A stretch of DNA of 64,000 nt from Candidatus Parcubacteria bacterium. GTDB lineage: Bacteria > Patescibacteriota > Saccharimonadia > UBA4664 > JBIOIQ01. The stretch covers positions 947,691 through 1,011,690 of the forward strand of contig OY970378.1 of NCBI GenBank assembly GCA_963718875.1. The letters run 5' to 3'. Position numbers and translations under genes: made by a program. Every line of letters starts with the position of its first letter. Within the stretch, counting starts at the first letter, position 1. Under the pieces are notes generated by a model that was given only the letters and a program-made list of their open reading frames with translations, did no database searches and was not told where the DNA came from. Below, in pieces: positions 858 through 61,829 of the stretch.

Positions 858-1358
858 TTATTTAACGACAAAGTTGACTAGTTTGCGCGGGACGGTAATA
901 GTTTTGACCATTGTTTTACCATCAAGATGCTTTTTGACAGACTCAACCTCCGCAGCGGACTTTTCCAACTCATCCTTGCCCACGTCTACGGCCGCTAGCA
1001 TAGTGCCGCGCAGCTTGCCATTGACCTGGATGGCAATCTCAATGATGTCGTCTTTAATTAACTCTGGATCATATTTGGGCCATGCAGCCACATGTACGCT
1101 CTCGGTTTCGCCCAATGCTTCTTGCCACAGCTCTTCGGCTAAGTGCGGCATGGCTGGAGCTAACATGAGGACTAATGTACGCACAGTTCGTTGCGCCAAT
1201 AAAGCGGCCTCAGGTTGCAAAAGTGATTTACGTATATCCGGCGCGTTCAAGAAGTTTACATATTCCATCAAGCTACTGACCATAGTATTAAAGTGCATAT
1301 CTTGAATATCTTCGTGGACTTTTTTCAAAGTTTTGTGAGTCATACGATCTACTGCCAC
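858..1358 (-). CDS. leuS: Leucyl-tRNA synthetase C-terminal fragment (anticodon-binding and C-terminal domain), separated from the main ORF by a frameshift
   Basis: Ends ...IQVNGKLRG...VPRKLVNFVVK, as bacterial LeuRS C-termini do; starts 2 nt away from the stop of the 840-aa LeuRS ORF but in a different frame. Confidence 0.8.
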   Translation of the reverse strand: MAVDRMTHKTLKKVHEDIQDMHFNTMVSSLMEYVNFLNAPDIRKSLLQPEAALLAQRTVRTLVLMLAPAMPHLAEELWQEALGETESVHVAAWPKYDPELIKDDIIEIAIQVNGKLRGTMLAAVDVGKDELEKSAAEVESVKKHLDGKTMVKTITVPRKLVNFVVK

Positions 1359-1359
1359 C

Positions 1360-3882
1360 TCAATGACCCCCTCGTTCCCACTTGGATTGCGAGGGAGCCT
1401 TGGTTTGGGAGTTTTGAATTAACTTATGCGCCAAGTCCCAAGTACGGTACGTAAAACGCCCTACGCCAGCTAAATGTTCCTCACTCCAGGCCATTTCTTG
1501 ATCATATGGTCCCATAAACATCTCGTACAATCGAAGTATATCTGCTCCATGCGTCGTGATTACGCCGTCTGGATTAATAACATTGCCGCGAGATTTGCTC
1601 ATCTTTTGATTGTCCGGCCCTAAAATCATGCCATGGCTTCGTCTCTTGGCATAAGGCTCGAGAGAGGGCACGAGTTTTTGATCATATAAAAATTTGTGCC
1701 AAAAGCGTGAATACAACAAATGAAGTGTCGTATGCTCCATTCCGCCGTTATAGAGATCAACCATCAACCAGTCTTGTAATTTGGACGTTGAAGCAAAAAC
1801 TTGATCATTGTTGGGGTCAATGTAGCGCAAATAGTACCAGCTAGAGCCAGCCCAGTTGGGCATGGTGTCTGTTTCTCGCTTAGCCGGACCATCACATTGA
1901 GGGCAAACCGTATTAACCCAATCGGTAATTGCCGCCAAGGGGCTTTCACCTGTTTTGGTGGGTTCATAATGTTCAACTTCAGGCAAAGTAAGAGGTAGTT
2001 GATCTTCCGGCACCGGCACGACTCCACACTTGGGACAATGAACCACCGGGATAGGTTCGCCCCAGTAATGCTGGCGACTAAAAATCCAATCGCGCAGTTT
2101 GTACTTGACTGCGTGTTTTGCGGACCCCGCTTTAAACAAATCTTCCACTATGGCTTGCTTTGCTTCGGATCCTAATAAACCGTCGTATTGGCCGGAATTA
2201 ATCAGTTCTCCTTCATCCGTAAGTGCGGTTTCTTTCCATAATTGCTGCCAGACAAATTTTTGGTGGTCAGGTACAAGCCTATCTAAAACTGCTTTTTGTT
2301 CGACCCAAACTAGAGTATGTTGCTTGGATTCGGCGTTGGGAATATTGCCTTGCTGGCTTAGATTGTCAACCTCGGCCATGATCACCATAGTAATGGCCTT
2401 GCGGTTTTGCTGCTTATGCGAGGCGCAGTAACGCGCTCCGGTAACCCAACGTAACTTGCGAACAATATTTATGTCCTGTAAGGCCGCTTCTTCGCGGATC
2501 TCATTTAAGGCGGCAGTTTCAGGTGTTTGCCCGTCTTCAATCCCTCCCATGATGGCAGTAGTTATGCCCTCAAGAGTACCGTGCCAATCAAGCAGGGCAA
2601 ATTTACCAGTGGACTTATCTTTAAGATGGACGATTACCGTGTCCCGAACGACTTCTTCGTACCTGGGTTGAGGTGGATTTTTGGTATCGTCCTCAATAGG
2701 CATGATTACCTGCTTAATTGGTAGGTCAAATTTTTTGGCAAACTCAAAGTCACGCTCATCGTGGGCAGGGACAGCCATAATGGCGCCCGTACCGTAACCC
2801 ATTAAAACGTAGTCGGCGATCCAAACTGGAAGTTCCTCTTTGGTAAGAGGGTTGATCGCCATTGCTCCGGTCCAGACGCCAGTTTTGGGCCGCTCCTGGT
2901 CTTGCCGCATTAACTCTGTCTCGGACTGGACGGTTTTGATATAGCTTTCAGTAACTGATTTTTGACCAGAGGTTGTGATGTCTTTTACTAGTGGATGTTC
3001 AGGCGCCAAGACTAAAAATGTAGCTCCGGCCAATGTGTCGGCACGAGTGGTGAAAACTTCAATATAAGAATTGTCATCCTGAACTCGATTCAGGATCTCT
3101 TGACTTAGTTTAAGAGATTCCGAATCCTGAGCGCTCGCATGGGCATGGTTCGTGCTCGCTTCCGGTCCGGAATGACAGATTGGAAATTTAACCGTCGCCC
3201 CCTCACTTCGACCGATCCAGTTAATTTGTTGCGTGGCCACACGAGGCAAGTAATCGACCGTTTTTAAGTCTTCAATCAGTCTATCAGCATAGGCTGTGAT
3301 TTTGAGTAACCATTGTTTGAGTAATTTTTTTTCGACTTCTGTGCCACAGCGCTCATGACGACCATTAATAACCTCTTCGTTGGCCAACCCAGTCTTACAA
3401 AATGGGCACCAATTAATGGCAATCTCGGCTTGGTAAGCAAGCCCGGCTTTAAGAAGTTGTAAAAAAATCCACTGGGTCCACTTGTAGTACTTAGGGTCAG
3501 TGGTATTAACCTCGCGCGACCAGTCGAAGCTTAGGCCCAAGCTTTTCATTTGGCGACGGAACGTGTCGACATTACGTTCGGTAGCGAGATGAGGGGCAAT
3601 CTTGTTTTTGATTGCATAGTTTTCTGTGGGCAATCCAAAAGCATCCCAGCCCATAGGATAGAGCACATTGAAACCTTGCATACGCTTGTGTCTGGCCATA
3701 ATATCCAGGGCAGTAAAGCTGCGGACATGTCCTACATGCAGCCCATCTCCCGAGGGATAAGGAAATTCTGCCAACAGGTAATATTTGGGCTTAGGATCAA
3801 AATCGACCGCTTGATAAAGCTTAGTGTCCGTCCAAACTTTTTGCCATTTGGGCTCAATTTTGCCTGGTTCGTATGGTTTCAT
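1360..3882 (-). CDS. leuS: Leucyl-tRNA synthetase main body (HVGH ... KMSKS) with an embedded Nudix/MutT-like domain and a repeat-derived insertion
   Basis: HVGHVRS and KMSKSRGN class-I motifs; CP1/editing region (TTRADTLAGATF, AVPAHDERDFEFAKKF); Nudix box GGIEDGQTPETAALNEIREEAAL at about aa 446-468. Confidence 0.9.
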   Translation of the reverse strand: MKPYEPGKIEPKWQKVWTDTKLYQAVDFDPKPKYYLLAEFPYPSGDGLHVGHVRSFTALDIMARHKRMQGFNVLYPMGWDAFGLPTENYAIKNKIAPHLATERNVDTFRRQMKSLGLSFDWSREVNTTDPKYYKWTQWIFLQLLKAGLAYQAEIAINWCPFCKTGLANEEVINGRHERCGTEVEKKLLKQWLLKITAYADRLIEDLKTVDYLPRVATQQINWIGRSEGATVKFPICHSGPEASTNHAHASAQDSESLKLSQEILNRVQDDNSYIEVFTTRADTLAGATFLVLAPEHPLVKDITTSGQKSVTESYIKTVQSETELMRQDQERPKTGVWTGAMAINPLTKEELPVWIADYVLMGYGTGAIMAVPAHDERDFEFAKKFDLPIKQVIMPIEDDTKNPPQPRYEEVVRDTVIVHLKDKSTGKFALLDWHGTLEGITTAIMGGIEDGQTPETAALNEIREEAALQDINIVRKLRWVTGARYCASHKQQNRKAITMVIMAEVDNLSQQGNIPNAESKQHTLVWVEQKAVLDRLVPDHQKFVWQQLWKETALTDEGELINSGQYDGLLGSEAKQAIVEDLFKAGSAKHAVKYKLRDWIFSRQHYWGEPIPVVHCPKCGVVPVPEDQLPLTLPEVEHYEPTKTGESPLAAITDWVNTVCPQCDGPAKRETDTMPNWAGSSWYYLRYIDPNNDQVFASTSKLQDWLMVDLYNGGMEHTTLHLLYSRFWHKFLYDQKLVPSLEPYAKRRSHGMILGPDNQKMSKSRGNVINPDGVITTHGADILRLYEMFMGPYDQEMAWSEEHLAGVGRFTYRTWDLAHKLIQNSQTKAPSQSKWERGGH
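3066..3176. repeat. Family-B/D-like palindromic element inserted in-frame inside leuS
   Basis: ttgtcatcctgaa..ttcaggatc followed by agattccgaatcctgagcgctcgc...cgcttccggtccggaatgac; compare the intergenic B copies ggattccctatccggagcgc...ccgatagggaatgac. It encodes the low-complexity LeuRS segment CHSGPEASTNHAHASAQDSESLKLSQEILNRVQDDNS. Confidence 0.6.
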
Positions 3883-7597: not shown

Positions 7598-7851
7598 TGG
7601 AGATCAACTTCCAGGAACTATTGGGCATGCTCGGCCGGTTCGTGCTTGACGGGTTCAAACGGAAGCGTCTGGCAGCGACGCTGTTCCTTTACTTACTCGG
7701 CGATGCCATCATGATGGGGATGATCGGCGTCATGATAGTAATCGGGCATCCGACGGGTGTAGCTGTGGCACTTGTTGCGACAGTGATGGCGATTTGGTTG
7801 ACACTCCCAACCTTCCGAGCTTGGGAGAGAAACCAGGCAGACATGCGTTAG
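7597..7851 (+). CDS. Hypothetical small membrane protein (two TM helices)
   Basis: Overlapping stop/start with the upstream gene (ATGA coupling); followed by a terminator. Confidence 0.4.
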   Translation: MEINFQELLGMLGRFVLDGFKRKRLAATLFLYLLGDAIMMGMIGVMIVIGHPTGVAVALVATVMAIWLTLPTFRAWERNQADMR

Positions 7852-7862
7852 AACAACAACCA

Positions 7863-7917
7863 CCGGTCCGGCGGCCACGCGCAAGCGCAGCTGCCGGACC
7901 GTTCGGCTTTTATAATC
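7863..7917 (+). terminator. Rho-independent terminator (ggtccggc..gccggacc plus ttcggcttttat)
   Basis: Inverted repeat plus T-run read from the sequence. Confidence 0.5.
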
Positions 7918-7937
7918 TGATTCTACGCTGGGCAAGG

Positions 7938-8033
7938 CCTTCGACCGACTCAGGCAATGATTGGTTTTTTGAAGTCCAACTTTAATCTTCATGGCTTTTG
8001 GCAATCGGGATTTGAAGTCAGACTTCTGATCAG
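7938..8033. repeat. Composite family-C half-site plus family-A element
   Basis: ccttcgaccgactcaggc followed by tggttttttgaagtccaactttaatc...gatttgaagtcagacttctgatcag. Confidence 0.8.
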
Positions 8034-8040
8034 TGTGAAA

Positions 8041-8560
8041 AGGCAAACGGCACCCCCGAGGAGGGGGTGCCGTGAGTGGCCCGCCAAGAAAGCGGCAGGC
8101 CAGTTTGTTTAGGGTGGTCAGCGGATCTGGTAATGGGGCGATTACCGTACTGCGATCCGCCTATCGTAGGGTTTCACACGCCGGATGAGGAACGCCCTCG
8201 TTAAGGCCCCAACTATCGCCACATATGCCCAGAAACCATGGGCCAGCTTTCCAAAAACGTCAAGGCGTTATACTTACTGCACCTGCTGACAATTTCGTCA
8301 GCTCCGCCCGGGCCCTGGTATGCGTATGCCTACGCATACCAGGGTAGATCCCGTTTGGGCCAATCGGCCGTCTGGTCGAGCTTCCGTTCGAGGGTGTGTG
8401 CCGGAGGGACCTGCCCAGGGGCACATTCATGACCCACCAAGAGCCGAGGCGCTTGATACCCTAGGATCCCATTGGACTTGACGGAAGAGCATCGCTTTTC
8501 GCCCGATCGGGGTATGAAAAACGTAGCAAAACTTGACAGAAGTGTCAAGAGAATTTTTGA
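8041..8560 (+). ncRNA. Candidate structured non-coding region (about 520 bp, elevated GC, several perfect hairpins, ends in a terminator); its identity could not be assigned
   Basis: Hairpins ggcaccccc-gagga-gggggtgcc (8049-8071) and ccctggtatgcgta-tgcc-tacgcataccaggg (about 8305-8340); cttgaca-gaag-tgtcaag plus tttttga (8531-8560); the only ORFs are 64-72 aa and unconvincing. Confidence 0.2.
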
Positions 8561-19798: not shown

Positions 19799-20839
19799 TT
19801 ATTTAAGGTACTTACTAATATTTGCATTGTGCTGATCCAAAGTGTGGGCAAAATGGGTTTTACCATTTTTGTCGGCAATAAAATAAGTGTAGTCGGTTTT
19901 AGCGGGATGGGCGGCCGCATTAAGAGCGTCAAGTCCTGGACTACATATGGGCCCCACTGGCAGCCCTTTATAGCGGTAAGTATTAAAGGGTGAATCAAGC
20001 TGGGTGTTGAATGGCTGGCCGGTTTGGATGGAGGCGTATATGACGGTGACATCACTTTGTAGTGCCTGGCCTGAAGCCAGACGGCTCAAGAATACCTGAG
20101 CAACAATTGGGCGGTCACTGGCGTTTGCGACTTCATGTTCAATTATCGAAGCCAAGGTAAGTCCTTGATGCAACGAAAGGCCCTGAGCGGCGAACGCATC
20201 TATTAAGTTTGTTGAGATTTTTTGGTCAAAGGCAGTAACCATTTTTTGTATTAGTTGGTGGGCAGTTGTAGAGTTTGTCATTTGATAGCCTTCGGGGAAT
20301 AAATAGCCCTCTAAATCCACCTCTTTGGGTCGCTGAGCAAGATATTTGCCGTCGTATGAGTCTTTTAAGGCGGCCTTGAACTGGCCGGGGGTAATACCAT
20401 GCTTGGCGGCAAGCGCTTCAATCTTAACTAATGTTGAGCCCTCAGGAATTACCAGCAAATTGCTCTTTATTTTACCTTTGCTTAAAATATCGGCGATTTC
20501 GGGCGTAGAAAGTTTACTCGAAAGCGAATAGCTACCTGCCTGAAGAGCACCTCGTAAACCATGTAGGTTTACATAAAATGCAAAAACGTTTTTATCGCGA
20601 ATCAACCCTGCGCTTTTAAGTCGGTTGGCGATTGAAGGCACTCCCATACCTTGGGGTATTTCAAAACTAACTGCTTTAGCTTGACCGGCGCTCATGGGTC
20701 TAAGCTGGTAGCGATAGGCTGCATATAAAGAGGCCGCAAAAAGTCCAAGAAGAATAAGTACTGCCATGAGTGCAACACCTAGCTTTTTTGCAGGCGATCG
20801 CTTGAATTTATACGGTAAATGGTCGTTAATAGGCTTCAT
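19799..20839 (-). CDS. mltG: Endolytic murein transglycosylase MltG (YceG family)
   Basis: N-terminal TM anchor plus a YceG-like domain. Confidence 0.8.
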   Translation of the reverse strand: MKPINDHLPYKFKRSPAKKLGVALMAVLILLGLFAASLYAAYRYQLRPMSAGQAKAVSFEIPQGMGVPSIANRLKSAGLIRDKNVFAFYVNLHGLRGALQAGSYSLSSKLSTPEIADILSKGKIKSNLLVIPEGSTLVKIEALAAKHGITPGQFKAALKDSYDGKYLAQRPKEVDLEGYLFPEGYQMTNSTTAHQLIQKMVTAFDQKISTNLIDAFAAQGLSLHQGLTLASIIEHEVANASDRPIVAQVFLSRLASGQALQSDVTVIYASIQTGQPFNTQLDSPFNTYRYKGLPVGPICSPGLDALNAAAHPAKTDYTYFIADKNGKTHFAHTLDQHNANISKYLK

Positions 20840-21258
20840 AGCATGTCCAAGTAATCCTGCAATATAATGGCGGCTGCTTCGGCATCAATTTGACCTTTGG
20901 ATGTCAACTTTGAGCCAATGCGCTCCCGAGCCAGCTCGCTAGTACCTGCTTCGTCTTGGAGGTGAATCGGCAAATGCAGGCTTGCAAGTTCGGCAGCAAA
21001 AAAGCGGGTGGCTTTGGTTTGATCGGTTTCTCCCCCATCGAGACCGCGAGGCAAACCAACCACCAGCTCTGTGACTTCATACTGGCGAACGATCTGTTGC
21101 AGGTGGTCCCAGTAGTTTCTGGTGGAGGCGTCTAGAGTTTCAAGTGGAGTAGCTATGCGAGTTTGGCGATTACCAAGAGCCAGCCCAATTCTTTTACTAC
21201 CGTAATCAATTCCTAGATAAACCATTAGGGTTAAGTATAACATCCTCTCCTGGTTCAA
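20836..21258 (-). CDS. ruvX: Putative pre-16S rRNA nuclease / Holliday-junction resolvase-like YqgF (RuvX)
   Basis: LGIDYGSKRIGLALG N-terminal motif; 140 aa. Confidence 0.8.
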   Translation of the reverse strand: MNQERMLYLTLMVYLGIDYGSKRIGLALGNRQTRIATPLETLDASTRNYWDHLQQIVRQYEVTELVVGLPRGLDGGETDQTKATRFFAAELASLHLPIHLQDEAGTSELARERIGSKLTSKGQIDAEAAAIILQDYLDML

Positions 21259-21308
21259 GTCGGTTTCCGATTATGCTAAACTAAAAGCAATTGATAAGGA
21301 AGCGGCAA

Positions 21309-21809
21309 ATGACAGATCAACCAGGTGGTCCTATAGGAGCTGGGGCAGGCGACCAAGCCGACCATGGCAGCATAGACAATGCAGCAGATACGTTTACTCC
21401 GCTGGTCGATGCAGAAGTCGAAGTGCCTGAGTCAGCCGAACGGATTCAGGCAACTAAAACAGCGCTAGATAAACTAGTGGAGGCGGCTCGACCTTATGCA
21501 CACCGATTTAATCGACCAATTGAGAGAGTGGAGTATGATTATGATCCACTTGCTACACGCCGTGGTGGCGGGCCGCAAGGAGACTTGGTCGAACGAAGAG
21601 TCCCGGTAGATAATGGTGGTGAAGGGCTGGATCAAGTCGACTTTTGGGCGGCAGTGGATGAAGGTGACGAAAGTCAAGGTGAGTACCGTTTAGTATTGGC
21701 TTTTCCTCATGAATCCCCCGCTGAAGGAGCGGGTGATGAACAGGTCATGCTGAGTAGGGAGTCGGCCTATGACCTTGGCTTTAATCCCGCACATGCAATG
21801 GCTTTATAG
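21309..21809 (+). CDS. Hypothetical acidic protein (GC about 55%)
   Basis: gataaggaagcggcaaATG ribosome-binding site; no recognisable domain. Confidence 0.4.
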   Translation: MTDQPGGPIGAGAGDQADHGSIDNAADTFTPLVDAEVEVPESAERIQATKTALDKLVEAARPYAHRFNRPIERVEYDYDPLATRRGGGPQGDLVERRVPVDNGGEGLDQVDFWAAVDEGDESQGEYRLVLAFPHESPAEGAGDEQVMLSRESAYDLGFNPAHAMAL

Positions 21810-21821
21810 GCTGGGGCGAGG

Positions 21822-22073
21822 GTGGCTGGGCGACGCTGGGAGGACTTTTTATACCGAGGCGGGACAACAACGGAAGTTCCCTACCGTGCAGCCGATTTTA
21901 CTTATGTGTTTAGCTATCGACCGACTGGACGTGAGGCAGCTGGCAGTGCCACTCGCGATCAAGTTGATGAGGTCTTGGGTCTCTTGGCCCGCAGTCACAT
22001 CCGTCGCGGCGAGCAAGATGGGCCGAGAGCCGTTGAGCTGGTACCTGAATTAGCCGAGCTAGTCAGCCATTAG
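21822..22073 (+). CDS. Hypothetical small protein
   Basis: ORF only; convergent with the ATPase gene. Confidence 0.3.
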   Translation: MAGRRWEDFLYRGGTTTEVPYRAADFTYVFSYRPTGREAAGSATRDQVDEVLGLLARSHIRRGEQDGPRAVELVPELAELVSH

Positions 22074-23371
22074 GCAGCTGCTTGGGCCAAGTCACGAAAA
22101 TGGTCCAGCTCCGGGTATGCTTCAATATACCGTTCTAGATGTTGGCTGGGACGGTGTATACCGAGTTCTGGCATATCAAGGTTGATGCGGGGCAAATCGG
22201 ACTCGAACAACTTAACTGAGTTAGTTGGGACTATAAAGGCCGAGCCATCCGGTCCAGTCTCAACCAGCTCGTCAGCCAAACGATATTGACGTCGGATACT
22301 GGCACCATTTTCCGGTTCGTCAATGAATACCAACTGTGGACCGGCTGGGTTGCCCCAGCGTTTTTGGCCAGTTTTGGCCTCTTCGGCGGCAGCTCTTTCA
22401 CTGCGGAGATGTTCAAATAGTCGCTCATCAATAGTTTGACGATGGGACAGCCCGTCTTGGAAGTGCTGCGGCCCACTGCTAATATTATATCCATCTGAGC
22501 TGTAAACCGTATGCCCCCGCCCCATGTCACGGTGCATTTGTGACAGTTCTCCGGCTACGACAGTACTATCATAGTAATGCATGGTGCGTGATGCGTGGCT
22601 TAAGCTGCTAACACTCATGCCTCGGGCAATACTAGGTGCTAAGCCGGCACCGTACAGTTCGGTTAAATCGTCATCTCTGGGATTAAAGACCCAACGTTCT
22701 GCCGTTTCAGCTCCTTCACGCTCAAGGATATCTTGATACTTGGCGGCATAGCGCAAAGCCTTGGCCAAAGTGGTTTTGCCCCTTGCGTTGTCGAAACTAC
22801 AGATAAGTGTAACGCCAGGATTGAACTCCAATACCTCTGGCAACTGGGCTATGGTTTCGAGAATCGCTTTGAGTTCGGCCCGTCGTTCTTCTTTTTTGCG
22901 ACTTGCCTCATCCGGTCTTAACCAGCCCTGAACCTCGAACTCTGGCTCAATGGAGCGGATCATATCCCGATCGAGGTGAACCGTTAATCCAGCCTGTGTT
23001 AGAGCTTCTTTGCGCTCCATAGAAGTTTTTTCTCGAAGAGCTTCGGCTGCTCGGCGATCCTCTTCTTCAGTGGAGGGTTTGGGCGGAGATGGCATGGGTG
23101 CGGCGCGCCCTGGCAGTCTACCGTGACGCGTAACCGTACCTGTTAATGAGCCAAAAGGCGACTCAGCCCAAGGGTCGATGGTAGCCGTATCAGCTTCAGG
23201 AGCACTTGTTCCTGGCGGCACAACAGCTTCATCCACGCCGACTTCCCCATCAGTAGCTAGGCCAGCAGTTTCGGCACCATCCGATGACGCTATCAGATCA
23301 GTGACATCCACCGCCGGATGAAAAACATCGCCTGGTCTGTGGGGCGCTTGTGGCTCAGTCTCGTCAGTCAT
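22070..23371 (-). CDS. ABC/AAA_21-like P-loop ATPase with a roughly 170-aa disordered acidic N-terminus
   Basis: Deviant Walker A FDNARGKTTLAKAL and the ABC-type Walker B / D-loop LVFIDEPENG; start codon is 2 nt after the stop of the upstream membrane-protein gene. Confidence 0.55.
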   Translation of the reverse strand: MTDETEPQAPHRPGDVFHPAVDVTDLIASSDGAETAGLATDGEVGVDEAVVPPGTSAPEADTATIDPWAESPFGSLTGTVTRHGRLPGRAAPMPSPPKPSTEEEDRRAAEALREKTSMERKEALTQAGLTVHLDRDMIRSIEPEFEVQGWLRPDEASRKKEERRAELKAILETIAQLPEVLEFNPGVTLICSFDNARGKTTLAKALRYAAKYQDILEREGAETAERWVFNPRDDDLTELYGAGLAPSIARGMSVSSLSHASRTMHYYDSTVVAGELSQMHRDMGRGHTVYSSDGYNISSGPQHFQDGLSHRQTIDERLFEHLRSERAAAEEAKTGQKRWGNPAGPQLVFIDEPENGASIRRQYRLADELVETGPDGSAFIVPTNSVKLFESDLPRINLDMPELGIHRPSQHLERYIEAYPELDHFRDLAQAAA

Positions 23372-23373
23372 GT

Positions 23374-25045
23374 TTAATTCCCGCTAGCAACTTTTACTTC
23401 AACTTTAATATGACTGGTGATGCGAGGGAGTTTGGATGACCATGGAGGGGAAAGCTTTACCTCCGCTTTAGAAACGCCAGGAAGTTTGCCAGCAAGGTCG
23501 GTGGCGTCGCCGTAACGCTTACCAGTGAGCTGCTTGGCAATAGCAGTGGTATCCAGCTTGGCGCCACCAAATGCGGTGGTGTCAAAAGTAAACGTTGACG
23601 CTGCTCCGGGGTCTAGCTTAACCGGCGTGATACTCAAGCTGCCTGCACCATCATCATAAATTTGACTCCCTGGCCCAATTTGTTTCAGCTCTTGGGCTTT
23701 TAAAACATCACTGAGCTCTGTTTTATCTACCGCAAACATAGAGTAGCTTACTTTTACGTCAACTACTGTTTGGTCGGCCTGCGCTCCCACTGCGGGATTG
23801 GCCGTTATAGTGCCTTGGGCGGTCGAAAATGATTCTTTGATAACTCGCGTGCCGCTAGGAACTTTGTTCTCCAAATCTTTTTGAGCTCCTTCCTTGTCTT
23901 TAGCAAGTAAATCAGCTACAGCCTTATCGACATCGGCTTGTGTCACGACACTAACCGTTTTCGAAGTCCCTCCTGACATTTGGCCTCCAGTACCGTTGAT
24001 ATAGGGTTGTTGGGCGGCGTTGAGTCCAGGAATAGTATATTTGATTCCGCTAGCCAAATTGTACTGGTCGCCACTCGCCTCGGCTTGAACCGCCACAGTT
24101 ACTGCACCAGCTTTGGCGCAACCCAAAATATTAACATTACCACCTGGCACCGTGGCATCTGCGGTGCTAACAAAAATCAGGCCGCCAGGAGATTTAAAAC
24201 GAGTCCCGGCCACGAAGGTGTGGGGGCTATTATCAAAACAGTTGTTGATGGTCATGTTGCCGGCTGCTTTGGTACCGACATCTTGTTTGCCCGTGGCGCT
24301 AGTTGTAGTAGTGAGGTCGTGGCTGGAAGTAAGGTTTGTGGCAGCCAAAACGGCCTTTTCGGCATCGCCGACTTTGATAGTAGGGTCAACTGTAGCCGTG
24401 AAGTTTGTAGTAATTTTTGATCCTTGGGCAAACAGAGTTACGGTGGCGCTAGCAATAAAATAGTTCAATACAAACAATGCAATAACTGCTGTGGCCGCAA
24501 TGCCTCCCCACAATAAGCGTTTTTGCATTTTGTTGAAATCCGGCACCTTGCCAGTTCCTTTGCTAACTTGTGTCCCAGTATCGCCCTCTATGGCTTTTCG
24601 TACTATCATGGGCTTGGCATAACTCGGCTTATTGCCGACATTTAACACCTGACCATTAACGTTTGACACGTGAGGATCGGCTACCTCATCTTCGAGCGGA
24701 TTTGGCGCGGTTGTCTCGTCGGGCTCATCTTCCGCTTCAATTTCATCGCTAGACTGGGGTTGCGGTTTGGCCTCGGTAATTTCAGGTTGACTTGTAATAG
24801 TACTCGCTACTGGCAGTCCGACCCGGCCAGCTAAGTGAGCCGAGGTGCGGTCGCCAGTTACAAGCACCAGTTTTTTACCAGCATCATCGGCGGCTTTTTA
24901 AGCAGTTTGAGATTAACGATGCTCTGCAACAAGGTAGATCGTTTAGGTACAACAATTTTTACGCTTGCGCCCGGCATTTTGGTCAACCGGTCGATAGCGG
25001 CAGTTATTTCCTCGTCAGCCTCAAGATATAATACTTCGTTATTCA
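23374..25045 (-). CDS. Large bitopic membrane protein (cytoplasmic N-domain, one TM, Thr/Gly/Ala-rich extracellular domain), interrupted by an apparent frameshift in an A-run near 24893
   Basis: The ORF-track pieces 24858..25112 (...NLKLLKK) and 23374..24867 (AADDAGKKLVLVTGD...) join through cttaaaaagccgcc by a 1-nt shift; ggagt ribosome-binding site before MNNEVLYLE. Confidence 0.5.
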
Positions 25046-25156
25046 TCAGTAACTCCAAGTAACAAGCAACGAGAAACAAGAAACAAACAACTTCCAACTC
25101 CCAAACTTCCAAAACACAGACTGCTGCGGCTTGGAATTGCTATTGGGCGCCTAACT

Positions 25157-25193: not shown

Positions 25194-26456
25194 TTAGTTA
25201 CTTATAGCTCGACTTAATTTGGCCATAATGCTATCGGTTATACCCTCTGAATGTATCACATCCAGTCCAATATTCGCGAGACCCATGGGAGTAATATCAG
25301 CAAAACTAGTGAGGTTTCCGGTGGTATCCACCACTCGATTAACCTCCTTGGGGCTAATGTGACTAACGCTAGGCTGACGGGCAAAAGCTAATTTTTTAAA
25401 CCAGGTGCGTCCGCGCAAGGCTGTCATGATTTGAGGAAGTCCTGTACCACCACCGCAGAGTAAAATTTTGGAGGGTAGGTGGTCGACCTTATCGAACTCG
25501 GACAACGAGAGTTCCACTCCCGACAGCCACACCTTGACGTCATTTTCTAAAGCTTTCTCTACTTGGGCAGCGGCGGAGGGTTTAAGTTTTCCAGCACCAT
25601 AATCAAGTTTAATTTTTTCGGCTTTTTCGAAACTGGCATTGGCTACTTGGGCAATGCGCTTGGTGAAACTACGGCCACCAATGGCAAACATTTTGGTCCC
25701 TTCAACTCCACCATTATTAACTAGGGCAATATCGGTTGTGCCACCGCCGATGTCAATGAATATGGCACTAAACTCATTTGAATCTTGTTGACCAACGGAC
25801 TTAGCTACTGCAAATGGCTCCGCTGCTACGTTTATAAGGTTCAGGTCCAGGTTGTTGGCTACTGTCTGTAGTGCGCCTAAGTGCACCATGGGCGCAAAGG
25901 CGCAAAAAAGTTGGATGTTGACGTCCCGACCCTGGAAGCCGATGGGGTTGGTAACACGGTAGCCATCGATCTGGACATCCACAATGGCGGTATTTACCAG
26001 CTGAACTTCAATCTCCTTATATCCAGTTTCCCATGCCAGCTGCTCTCGTGCCCGCTCAAATGCCCTCATTTGGACGCGGTCAAGAATTTTGCGCAATTCA
26101 GCTAAATCAATTGGTTCGGCAGGGTGGTTGCGTTTGTACTTGATGTTGGTAGAAGTGCCTTTTACAAGCTCACCGGCAATGCCAATGACAGTGTCTTTAG
26201 CCACAACACCACTCATTTTTTCGGCCGCACGCAGGGCTAAATCACAATTTTCGGTAACACCGGCAATGTCTGTAACGGCGCCAGATTGCATGTCAGTTAG
26301 GCGCTGGCGCTGTCGGCCCACCCCAATAACCCCAGCTGTATCACCGTTAACTTTGGCGATTAAAGCTTTGACAAACTCGGTGCCGATATCAAGTGCAATG
26401 ATGTGCTCGGTTTGATCTCGATTGCGCAATCTAACAAATTTTTGCAACAGCTTCAT
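25194..26456 (-). CDS. ftsA: Cell division protein FtsA (actin-like ATPase)
   Basis: IALDIGTEFVK phosphate-1 and IFIDIGGGTTDIAL phosphate-2 motifs; 420 aa. Confidence 0.8.
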   Translation of the reverse strand: MKLLQKFVRLRNRDQTEHIIALDIGTEFVKALIAKVNGDTAGVIGVGRQRQRLTDMQSGAVTDIAGVTENCDLALRAAEKMSGVVAKDTVIGIAGELVKGTSTNIKYKRNHPAEPIDLAELRKILDRVQMRAFERAREQLAWETGYKEIEVQLVNTAIVDVQIDGYRVTNPIGFQGRDVNIQLFCAFAPMVHLGALQTVANNLDLNLINVAAEPFAVAKSVGQQDSNEFSAIFIDIGGGTTDIALVNNGGVEGTKMFAIGGRSFTKRIAQVANASFEKAEKIKLDYGAGKLKPSAAAQVEKALENDVKVWLSGVELSLSEFDKVDHLPSKILLCGGGTGLPQIMTALRGRTWFKKLAFARQPSVSHISPKEVNRVVDTTGNLTSFADITPMGLANIGLDVIHSEGITDSIMAKLSRAISN

Positions 26457-27421: not shown

Positions 27422-28234
27422 GTGTCTAAATCAGCCCCTGACGATGACGGCCCTTCCGAGGGCTATCAGGCTGTAATACCTTTCGAAGAAGCGCGCCTGG
27501 TTGCCGCCGCCAAGGCGGGAGATTCCAACGCACTTACAGCATTGGTTGAAGCTACCCAAGCCGATGTCTACACTTTGGCTTACCGCATTGTTGGTAACGA
27601 AGATGATGCCCGTGACGTAGTGCAGGAGGCGTACCTTCGAGCATTCCGATCGCTCAGGCGGTTCCGTGGTGACGCCAGATTCTCAACCTGGATGTTTCGT
27701 ATCACCGCTAACTGCGCCGCTACGCATTTGACGGGGCGATCAAAGTTTCGACATGAAGAGCTCGGTGACGATGACAACGTGCTGGACGAGAGGCCAGAAT
27801 CCGATCCTGAGGCTATGGCCGAAGCAGGGGCTCTGAGGGACAAAGTAACGGCCGCGTTGGCTAGTCTTCCTCCCAAATTAAGAGCCGTAGTAGTGCTGCG
27901 AGATGTTTACGACCTGCCCCACGATGTCATTGCAAGCGAATTGGGTATTACGGAGTCCGCGGCCAAGGTACGCTTGCATCGCGCCCGACGGAAGCTCCGG
28001 GAGAGGCTTTTCCCGGTCCCCCAGGTTGACCACCCTACCTATGATCATCAAGCAGCTATGGAAAAGCCCACTCTGCCGGAAGTCATACAAATGAGACAAC
28101 GAGGTCTCACCTTTCGACAGATTGGTGACATCCTGAGTGTATCCGCGGGTGCCGCCCAAAAAAGACACAAGCGAGCAGAAGAGCTATTGGCCCCGGAGAA
28201 TGGCTCGCATGAGCCCACGGCAATGGAGGGGTGA
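27422..28234 (+). CDS. ECF-type sigma-70 family factor with an additional C-terminal HTH-containing extension; GC about 57%
   Basis: Region 2 (DARDVVQEAYLRAFRSL) and region 4 (VVVLRDVYDLPHDVIASELGITESAAKVRLHRARRKLRE); a second HTH-like RGLTFRQIGDILSVSAGAAQKRHKRA lies in the last 70 aa. Confidence 0.75.
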   Translation: MSKSAPDDDGPSEGYQAVIPFEEARLVAAAKAGDSNALTALVEATQADVYTLAYRIVGNEDDARDVVQEAYLRAFRSLRRFRGDARFSTWMFRITANCAATHLTGRSKFRHEELGDDDNVLDERPESDPEAMAEAGALRDKVTAALASLPPKLRAVVVLRDVYDLPHDVIASELGITESAAKVRLHRARRKLRERLFPVPQVDHPTYDHQAAMEKPTLPEVIQMRQRGLTFRQIGDILSVSAGAAQKRHKRAEELLAPENGSHEPTAMEG

Positions 28235-60800: not shown

Positions 60801-61829
60801 TTATACTCCGGCTGGCTCCATGTCTCGGCTGTAGCTGCCGGTGGCGGCGGCTGCGGCGCAGGCTGCGCGGTGGGAGGCCACCTTCTGGGCCTCGGCGACG
60901 TTCTCGCTCGAGCCCTTCCAGGCCTTCAGCGCCCCGTCCTGCAGCGCCCGGCCATATGAGAAGGTCAGCACCCAGGGGTGGGGGCCCGCCTTGTTCATGA
61001 GGTCGAGGTGCTCGGTGGCCACTGCGGCTGACTGCCCGCCGGACAGGAAGGCGATGCCGGGTACCGCGGCGGGCACGGTGCGGTAGAGGAGATCGAGGGT
61101 GCGGTTGGCCACCTCCTGTGCGCTGGCCTGCACGTCGCACTCCTTGCCCGAGATGACCATGTTGGGCTTGAGAACCATGCACCGCAGATCCACCTGCTGC
61201 CGGTGCAGCTCCTGGAAAACCCTGCGATGGGCGCGCAGAGTGGCTTGGTAACAGGCGTCGATGTTGTGCTCGCCGTCCATCACCACCTCGGGCTCGATGA
61301 CCGGCACCAAGCCACCCTCCTGGCAGAGGGCGCCGTAGCGGGCCAGGGCGTGGGCGTTGCAATGGAGGGCGTAGTCGGACGGGTACCCCAGGAGTTCGTC
61401 GATGATGAACACGGCCCGCCACTTGGCGAACTTGGCGCCCAGGCTGACGAACTCCTCGATGCGCTCGCGGAGTCCGTCGAGGCCCTCGGTGACCTGCTCG
61501 TCGTTGTCGAGCGCAAGCGGCTTGGAGCCCGTGTCGACCTTGATCCCCGGCAGGATGTGCTTGGCCTCCAGCAGCTTCGGGAAGGGGGTGCCGTCAGCGG
61601 AGCTCTGCCGGATAGTCTCTTCGTAGAGGATGACGCCACTGATATACTCCTCGAGGCCCGGAATGCTCAGTAGGGTGTCGCGGTAGGCGCGGCGGTTTTC
61701 CTCAGTGGAATCGATGTCGAGCGCCCCGAAGCGCTTGGTGATGGTGGCGTTGCTCTCGTCGGCCGCTAGAACTCCTCGGCCGTGGGCGACCATGGCTTGG
61801 GCCACTGCAGCCAAATCGGTTACAGACAT
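60801..61829 (-). CDS. fba: Fructose-bisphosphate aldolase, class I, in a roughly 65% GC segment
   Basis: GVLAADESNATITKRF...EENRRAYRDTLL...ISGVILYEETI are class-I FBA hallmarks; GC is far above the neighbouring pyk. Confidence 0.85.
   Translation of the reverse strand: MSVTDLAAVAQAMVAHGRGVLAADESNATITKRFGALDIDSTEENRRAYRDTLLSIPGLEEYISGVILYEETIRQSSADGTPFPKLLEAKHILPGIKVDTGSKPLALDNDEQVTEGLDGLRERIEEFVSLGAKFAKWRAVFIIDELLGYPSDYALHCNAHALARYGALCQEGGLVPVIEPEVVMDGEHNIDACYQATLRAHRRVFQELHRQQVDLRCMVLKPNMVISGKECDVQASAQEVANRTLDLLYRTVPAAVPGIAFLSGGQSAAVATEHLDLMNKAGPHPWVLTFSYGRALQDGALKAWKGSSENVAEAQKVASHRAACAAAAATGSYSRDMEPAGV

Follow-up and report, generated by a model that had tools for sequence, protein, structure and literature searches.

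An inserted and seemingly decaying ATPase-partner cassette in a conserved ftsA-ruvX gene string of a Saccharimonadia bacterium

The locus described here lies in a 64,000-nucleotide stretch of DNA (the window; GenBank assembly GCA_963718875.1, contig OY970378.1, positions 947,691 to 1,011,690) from a Candidatus Parcubacteria bacterium of the Saccharimonadia, in which a gene for a 433-amino acid (aa) ABC-type ATPase follows an ftsA-like gene and a membrane-protein gene. It is probably best explained as a pair of unrelated neighbours, namely a gene string conserved in Saccharimonadia that carries a probable assembly error, and an inserted, seemingly decaying cassette made up of the ATPase gene and a convergent partner gene. 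Accessory and only sporadically distributed, the ATPase is inherited with an adjacent partner and has been inserted at this site, with a lesion in both genes, and the cassette appears to be degenerating in this genome. The string would consist of guaA, in some cases a sigma factor gene, the ftsA-like gene, the gene of a 557-aa bitopic protein, ruvX, mltG and a LysM/CHAP gene, and the 2.1-kb cassette would have entered precisely where the membrane-protein gene meets ruvX. It would here be losing function through a nonsense TAG codon in the partner gene and through a P-loop of the ATPase that lacks both glycines and has one residue extra.

A two-gene insertion in a conserved gene string

The accessory cassette, comprising the ATPase gene and its convergent partner, occupies 2,115 bp (21259..23373) between the membrane-protein gene and ruvX. 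In three relatives (loci L024, L025 and L026), with FtsA-like proteins 82-91% identical to that of the window, the genes run in the order guaA, (sigma), ftsA-like, membrane protein, ruvX, yceG, LysM/CHAP and obg, and neither the ATPase nor the partner is found at the syntenic locus. The ruvX gene begins 24-27 nucleotides (nt) past the membrane gene in L025 and L026, and in L024 a different 135-aa open reading frame (ORF) sits between the two. Conversely, none of 31 ATPase-family loci includes the membrane gene, ftsA or ruvX, and the neighbours at these loci are diverse housekeeping genes. Since the relatives are without the cassette and the ATPase loci are without the membrane gene, 21259-23373 is taken to be a two-gene cassette that was inserted with hardly any additional DNA. 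The same ATPase-partner cassette is found in locus L003 (3454-8804) between rnc and smc, another conserved housekeeping pair, and this suggests that the cassette travels as a bare two-gene unit. The membrane-gene/ruvX junction may be a recurrent insertion site. The 135-aa ORF of L024, the closest relative, is at 7806-8213 (minus strand) and has no family assignment.

An earlier reading of the window, made from the sequence alone, had given the ORFs of the block and an ATPase start 2 nt past the preceding stop, both of which are present: the ATPase ATG (23371) lies 2 nt past the TAA of the upstream membrane gene. The spacing follows from the insertion and does not argue for a shared function of the ATPase and the membrane protein; it would let the ATPase be expressed from the transcript of the ftsA string. 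The GC content of about 55% that this sequence-only reading had given for the block was measured at 51.2%, with 53.1% for the insertion and 49.0% for the whole window. GC content at third codon positions (GC3) is 0.46, 0.38 and 0.50 in the cassette genes, inside the native range of 0.48 +/- 0.08, and the elevated GC of the cassette is therefore attributed to amino-acid composition. On the same ground GC content was discarded as a mark of foreign origin, and the idea of a foreign-GC block is not supported. Acquisition followed by degradation, also proposed in the sequence-only reading, fits the data, and the nonsense codon of the partner adds to it.

A rare family of ABC-type ATPases

The ATPase gene (22070..23371, minus strand) encodes an acidic, disordered N-terminal tail (residues 1-95) and a predicted nucleotide-binding domain (NBD). 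The first 70 residues contain 16 Asp or Glu against a single Lys or Arg, and are disordered in the AlphaFold 2 (AF2) model, for which the mean predicted local distance difference test score (pLDDT) is 72. In Foldseek the model matched almost exclusively ABC-type ATPases (IrtAB, retron Ec78 PtuA, AriA, GajA, TAP1 and LptB), with E-values of only about 2e-3. Against Pfam, the window protein aligned with AAA_23 (21.6 bits, E=4e-4, residues 180-210) and AAA_21 (18.7 bits, E=2e-3, residues 344-381), in both cases below the cut-off of 27. A word-index search returned 15 homologous matches that are 30-40% identical (E 1e-21 to 1e-61). Canonical relatives pass the Pfam thresholds for AAA_15 (37-41.7 bits, cut-off 32.1), AAA_23 (34-37.5) and AAA_21 (35-42.5), which establishes superfamily membership for the family and, by homology, for the window copy. 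The profile check proposed in the sequence-only reading thus succeeds with the canonical members of the family but not with the window protein itself. In searches of the PDB, the family profile matched the N-termini of Rad50, RecF and SMC as well as the Walker B region of ABC transporters.

The family is present in 13 of 185,579 GTDB species representatives, eight of them Saccharibacteria and the rest including Roizmanbacteria and Parcubacteria, and an exhaustive HMMER scan of 1.84 billion representatives yielded about 100 clusters (50% identity, E<=1e-30). Scans of IMG/VR and INPHARED gave no relatives of the ATPase, Pfam, NCBIfam, PADLOC and PHROG hold no family-specific model for it, and a literature search found nothing on the family. 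On the evidence of these profile and homologue searches, the ATPase is a member of a rare, unnamed ABC-type family found mainly in bacteria belonging to the Candidate Phyla Radiation (CPR). Rare, and lacking at the syntenic locus of the three relatives, it is not a housekeeping gene of the lineage, in keeping with the sequence-only reading.

Motifs of the window ATPase

The motif strings FDNARGKTT and LVFIDEPENG are present in the 433-aa protein, as is the acidic N-terminus that had been described along with them, and comparison with the homologues supports the view of an ABC/AAA_21-23-type ATPase with a decayed Walker A. The consensus of the family around the P-loop is a beta-strand followed by xFxPGxTLIVGENGxGKST, and the Walker A of nearly all the relatives inspected (about 130) is G-x-N-G-x-G-K-[ST]-[ST] or closely similar. 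At this position (residues 193-201; 22769..22795, minus strand) the window protein has FDNARGKTT against the family pattern G[EDNP]NGxGK[ST]T. The string S-F-D-N-A-R-G-K-T-T occurs only in the window protein; both P-loop glycines are gone and one residue is extra, with GKT kept. These changes would be expected to impair nucleotide binding.

The remaining motifs are those of the family. The Walker B / D-loop LVFIDEPENG (residues 347-356; 22304..22333, minus strand) conforms to the family form F-x-D-[EQ]-P-E-x-G, in which F349, D351, P353, E354 and G356 are invariant, and both the AAA_21 and the AriA profiles align with the window protein there. About 35 residues ahead of it, SHRQTID (residues 309-315; 22427..22447, minus strand) represents the family-invariant S-x-R-Q-x-x-D. 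Its S309-x-R311-Q312 is invariant and opens a helix (310-333) that lies outside the profile alignments of the window protein. From its position in the model, we infer that this motif is the equivalent of the ABC signature. The PTNS motif (residues 382-385; 22217..22228, minus strand) is at the H-loop position, with Asn for His in nearly the whole family; Asn384 is invariant in a 15-sequence family alignment, and the distant P0172 has PTHS. The C-terminus of the family, DLPRIDLxxPERGIxRPSEYP, is distinctive, and here the window protein has PRINLDMPELGI (22157..22192, minus strand) against the consensus PRIDLxxPERGI, with the deviations D397N and R403L. In a leave-one-out test the window ATPase deviates at four of 45 near-invariant positions (G192S, G196A, D397N and R403L).

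Three relatives, P0007, P0009 and P0011 (loci L001, L002 and L013), have Gln in place of the catalytic Glu of Walker B (IDQPEEG). In ABC ATPases, a Glu-to-Gln exchange in Walker B is the classic substitution for a hydrolysis-dead enzyme. By analogy with other ABC NBDs, the canonical ATPase would form ATP-sandwiched dimers and might serve as a nucleotide-dependent switch acting on its partner, and the natural Glu-to-Gln variants and the Asn of the H-loop suggest slow or no turnover.

The convergent partner gene

The partner gene (21309..22073, plus strand; about 254 codons) belongs to an orphan family. Two plus-strand ORFs, 21291/21309-21809 and 21822-22073, point toward the 433-aa ATPase ORF, and had been read as two genes. 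They share one frame and are split by a single in-frame TAG (21807..21809, plus strand) that cuts the partner into ORFs of 166 and 83 aa, and the 3' end of the gene overlaps the ATPase gene by 4 nt, tail to tail. When read through, the partner of about 254 aa aligns end to end with uninterrupted single genes (227-264 aa; 34-37% identity) that lie directly after the ATPase gene, likewise tail to tail, in loci L003, L004, L011, L015, L027, L030 and L031. These are the loci of the closest ATPase relatives, and the ATPases with this partner form one clade, in which the window protein is basal. The two plus-strand ORFs are thus one gene with an in-frame TAG, intact in other genomes.

The TAG is found just ahead of the most conserved segment of the partner, GRRFQDFLY..G..VPV.EADFTYVYDYRP.G, and the same split into 166 and 83 aa is called in an independent Logan assembly. 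TAG is an ordinary stop in this genome, ending 12 of 41 long ORFs, so the TAG of the partner is considered a genuine nonsense codon. The partner profiles gave no match in PDB, Pfam, PADLOC, NCBIfam or PHROGs, and a word-index homologue search with the read-through partner returned only itself.

In a second subclade of ATPases (L020, L021 and L023, and L034, where it is convergent) a gene of 217-238 aa adjoins the ATPase as an upstream partner. An hhalign comparison of the window's partner with this C-type partner gave E=1.1e-4 and a probability of 56% over 168 collinear columns. About 90 neighbours served as controls, all with E>=0.06, and only cross-matches between partners reached E<=0.014 with alignments of more than 50 columns. 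On this profile comparison, the two partners are probably remote homologues. The small B-type neighbours of a third subclade (L001, L014 and L018) show no detectable kinship to A- or C-type partners.

A short NPW-type motif is kept in the disordered N-tail of the ATPase family, as DPWAES in the window (residues 66-71; 23159-23176, minus strand) and as NPWxxL in relatives, and a similar NPWGD motif is seen in the C-type partner proteins (L020, L021, L023 and L034). The two may represent a shared binding motif. The gene upstream of the ATPase in family loci is often of the TrmB family or encodes a Replic_Relax winged helix-turn-helix (wHTH) protein. The TrmB-family regulator is found in four genomes (L001/L013, 4600-5331; L020, 6437-7231; L021, 4931-5712, where it is seemingly split into two ORFs; and L023, 6308-7045), and the Replic_Relax wHTH gene lies directly upstream of the ATPase module in Roizmanbacteria loci (L012, 6890-7744).

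Probable inactivation or possible continued function

Several observations weigh against an inserted and decaying cassette. Its arrival is not marked by genes for mobility, by repeats on its flanks or by foreign codon usage, and searches for flanking direct or inverted repeats and for terminators around the insertion gave chance-level matches only. Together with the native-like GC3 this means that the insertion is not recent, or that the donor was of similar composition. The ATPase ORF is otherwise intact: it preserves 41 of the 45 near-invariant residues, and its branch shows no acceleration (root-to-tip 0.325, compared with 0.30-0.40). With only four of the 45 positions changed and no acceleration, the lesion is specific and probably recent, with no wholesale decay. 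Finally, conservation in each half of the partner equals that among its homologues, so that either the inactivation is recent or the proteins may still work.

Some of these observations would suit a cassette that is still functional, with the window protein as a regulatory ATPase of degenerate P-loop (a nucleotide-independent or weakly binding scaffold) and a partner that is either split or produced by low-level read-through of the TAG. In addition to the intact ORF, the unchanged rate and the conserved partner halves, the ATPase still has GK[T]T, Walker B, PTNS and the signature-like motif, and the natural IDQPEEG relatives suggest a switch and not a motor. Nevertheless, we consider a functional cassette unlikely, because the loss of the glycines with a residue inserted is unique among the relatives inspected, because TAG is an ordinary stop here and precedes the most conserved segment of the partner, and because relaxed selection is the better explanation for a two-gene module with two independent lesions.

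Relation to known systems and possible role

The family shares several features with the ABC group formed by AAA_15, AAA_21, AAA_23 and SMC_N (Rad50, RecF, SMC heads and the N-domains of OLD proteins). These are an N-terminal beta-strand followed by the P-loop and a Walker B of the form hhhhDE followed by PExG as in AAA_21; S-x-R-Q, at a helix start about 35 residues before Walker B, may correspond to the signature. The AF2 model of the window ATPase suggests an NBD fold, at the Foldseek E-values given above. The family differs from this group in lacking a coiled-coil insertion, a hinge, a zinc hook and a fused TOPRIM/nuclease, and in its H-loop Asn (in nearly all members), its PRIDLxxPERGIxRPSEYP motif and its disordered N-tail with the NPW motif; the window copy further departs from the Walker A form GxxxxGK[ST] of the group, as its P-loop glycines are lost.

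Two-gene anti-phage systems (PARIS, Septu/retron Ec78, Gabija and the MADS genes mad3/mad8) likewise combine a small ABC ATPase with one adjacent partner, and the family shares with them a sporadic, accessory distribution. In PADLOC, canonical members matched mad8 over the whole NBD, as well as AriA, mad3 and HEC-02 (E 1e-7 to 1e-11), and the window ATPase gave weak matches to AriA, PbeC and LmuB only. Such matches are generic and mostly cover 30-40 residues around the P-loop. The likeness to AriA of PARIS is at motif level (E 1.5e-4 for the window protein and 8e-11 for P0003), and the TOPRIM of AriB is missing from the partner. With OLD/Gabija GajA the match is confined to the P-loop, and the window protein ends about 50 residues past the H-loop position without a TOPRIM match. 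PtuA of Septu/retron Ec78 PtuAB also matches only the P-loop (E 1e-4 to 1e-6), with no HNH partner here. Unlike the partners in the anti-phage systems, the partner in this family has no TOPRIM, HNH, helicase or other recognisable domain, and it is convergent in the clade of the window.

The most likely role of the module is that of a conflict-type system, of defence or addiction, but this is a weak guess. Its partner has no recognisable domain, the neighbours of the ATPase loci are housekeeping genes with no defence-island genes among them, and the PADLOC matches are generic. A defence-like role is possible, as far as generic motif-level matches to AriA, mad8, LmuB, PtuA and GajA can indicate it, with no recognisable effector domain and no phage link. 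A tentative proposal is that the ATPase and its orphan partner could constitute an uncharacterised two-gene defence or addiction system of a new kind, mainly of CPR bacteria, which are ultra-small and episymbiotic, that moves as a bare cassette into housekeeping gene strings and of which the window holds a freshly inactivated copy. Such a system would be characterized by an NBD with an H-loop Asn, a PRIDLxxPERGI tail, an N-tail with the NPW motif and often a wHTH regulator, and its partner family would be represented in at least two deep subclades, in differing orientations.

Alternatively, the family might provide RecF/Rad50-like accessory factors for DNA repair or chromosome maintenance and not a conflict system. 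The N-termini of Rad50, RecF and SMC are the best PDB matches of the family profile, and repair or recombination genes are neighbours in several loci: RuvC/YebC and gyrA in L001, SMC in L003, RNase H in L007, UvrABC/Fpg/RuvA in L009 and ruvX in the window. However, other loci are beside genes for major facilitator superfamily transporters, GroEL, EF-P, SecDF, NUDIX or a response regulator, and the repair neighbours were picked out post hoc in small, gene-dense genomes. The family also has no coiled coil, zinc hook or nuclease partner. Compared with Rad50, SbcC and SMC, the window ATPase has only about 110 residues between Walker A and the signature-like motif, modelled as short helices and two strands and not as a long coiled coil, and the RecF model TIGR00611 scores about 20 bits, against a cut-off of 172, in the P-loop region only. 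As a sporadic distribution is also atypical of core repair genes, a repair role appears improbable. A separate candidate, an association of the ATPase loci with GroEL, was rejected since GroEL in L021 and the 553-aa neighbour in L012 are not homologues.

The membrane protein and its apparent frameshift

The bitopic membrane-protein gene (23374..25046, minus strand) is deposited as an 84-aa ORF, with the real ATG at 25046, and a 497-aa ORF (23374-24867). The break is at an A-run of the coding strand, cTT AAA AAG cc, where an A5 run (24895..24899, minus strand) is one base short. Adding one A there gives a protein of 557 aa, the junction of which, LKLLKKAADDAGKKLVLVTGD, agrees with the consensus of the homologues. 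More than 477 homologues were found at E<=1e-10, with lengths of 530-585 aa, nearly all aligned over their full length and all single ORFs. On this comparison, the 557-aa protein is a widely conserved protein of Saccharimonadia that follows the ftsA-like gene in the relatives examined.

The AF2 model of the orthologue P0018 (61% identical; pLDDT 87) has a small N-terminal alpha/beta domain, a disordered linker, one transmembrane (TM) helix and a beta-rich exodomain, which in the window protein is rich in Ala, Thr and Gly. The model and the reconstruction with one A added bear out the sequence-only description of an upstream gene of about 557 aa with an N-domain, one TM segment and an exodomain of this composition. 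The exodomain is GlxA/baseplate-J-like: its Foldseek matches (E about 1e-5) are phage baseplate wedge proteins and GlxA, and in Pfam the protein matched GlxA (37.6 bits) and also Baseplate_J. In the relatives examined, the ftsA-like gene is always paired with the 557-aa bitopic protein, which is reminiscent of actin-like/bitopic pairs such as PilM/PilN. Identity across the relatives is 53-58% for the membrane protein, compared with 82-91% for FtsA, which indicates a fast-evolving exodomain.

An independent Logan assembly of run ERR12037361, from a near-identical strain, has the same locus with the membrane gene intact at 557 aa (P0278), which has D at residue 343 where the reconstruction has N and is otherwise identical to it. 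A second indel in the window affects LeuRS (858-3882, minus strand), which is split into ORFs of 840 and 166 aa by one extra base at about 1381 (aaGtggg), placed by comparison with P0281, an intact and otherwise identical LeuRS of 1007 aa in an independent ENA assembly. With a pair of indels in conserved genes of one 64-kb stretch, neither of them seen in independent assemblies, consensus error is the likeliest cause, and the frameshift in the membrane gene is most likely a 1-nt assembly error. The frameshift described in the sequence-only reading is hence present in the A-run but probably not biological, the gene being intact in an independent assembly.

Counting against this explanation, the intact P0278 allele differs at one residue and perhaps comes from another strain, and the A5 run is possibly a real strain variant. 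If the frameshift were real, it could stem from a recent deletion that made the gene a pseudogene, or be bypassed by -1 slippage of the ribosome. At the site the sequence is U AAA AAG (24893-24901, minus strand), close to the -1 slippery heptamer of dnaX, A AAA AAG, and a -1 slip there would give exactly the 557-aa product. The heptamer rule is known from dnaX and from frameshifting in insertion sequences. However, the heptamer arises automatically once A6 becomes A5 (one A lost from CTT AAA AAA GCC), and programmed frameshifting was therefore given low weight. In view of the uninterrupted homologues, the intact P0278 and the indel in the essential LeuRS, which also points to consensus errors, a real frameshift is quite unlikely.

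A division module, with the ATPase working alongside FtsA and a bitopic membrane protein to which it would be translationally coupled, in the manner of FtsE/FtsX, is very improbable: the 2-nt gap between the membrane-gene stop and the ATPase start and the site just downstream of the ftsA-like gene would favour it, but the membrane protein has more than 477 homologues, none of the three syntenic relatives has the ATPase after the membrane gene (in two of them it abuts ruvX), and an ATPase found in only 13 of the species genomes is accompanied by ftsA or the membrane gene at none of its 31 loci. The likeness to FtsE/FtsX is that of an ABC-type ATPase gene beside a membrane-protein gene near a division gene. 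With its single TM helix and an exodomain resembling baseplate-J/GlxA, the membrane protein is not FtsX; nor is the ATPase an FtsE of the ABC_tran type. The adjacency is confined to this genome and arose by insertion. Pairs of the membrane protein and the ATPase, which the sequence-only reading had proposed to look for elsewhere, are not found at any of the 31 loci.

Other features of the window

The ftsA-like gene (25194..26456, minus strand), which opens the conserved string as annotated here, encodes an actin-family ATPase of 420 aa, assigned by synteny and by the Pfam FtsA profile PF14450 (60.1 bits, cut-off 31.8); NCBIfam TIGR01174 scores 123.8, under its cut-off of 175.85. The native downstream genes of the string are ruvX (20836-21258, minus strand) and mltG/yceG (19799-20839, minus strand), followed by a LysM/CHAP gene on the same strand. 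Upstream of the ftsA-like gene there is a gene for an ECF-type sigma-70 factor with an extra C-terminal HTH (27422-28234, plus strand; 56% GC), found in equivalent position in L024 and L026 and not in L025. An Rfam scan of the window identified two tRNAs only. Further away, a class-I fructose-bisphosphate aldolase gene (60801-61829, minus strand; PF00274, E=7e-124; 66% GC) has a GC3 of 0.87, compared with the mean of 0.48 +/- 0.08 for the genes of the window, and looks like a recent arrival from a high-GC donor.

Implications

The deposited genome, of 1.19 Mb, probably contains indel errors that split the membrane-protein gene and LeuRS, neither of which is to be taken for a pseudogene. The ftsA-like gene and the gene of the 557-aa bitopic protein are a conserved pair of Saccharimonadia that is worth study in its own right. 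The accessory and defence gene content of CPR bacteria is poorly known. As the window copy of the cassette is probably non-functional, the locus itself is of limited value, and the family may merit follow-up through a canonical copy. Should such a copy turn out to be a conflict system, a new ATPase-partner architecture would be added to those known.

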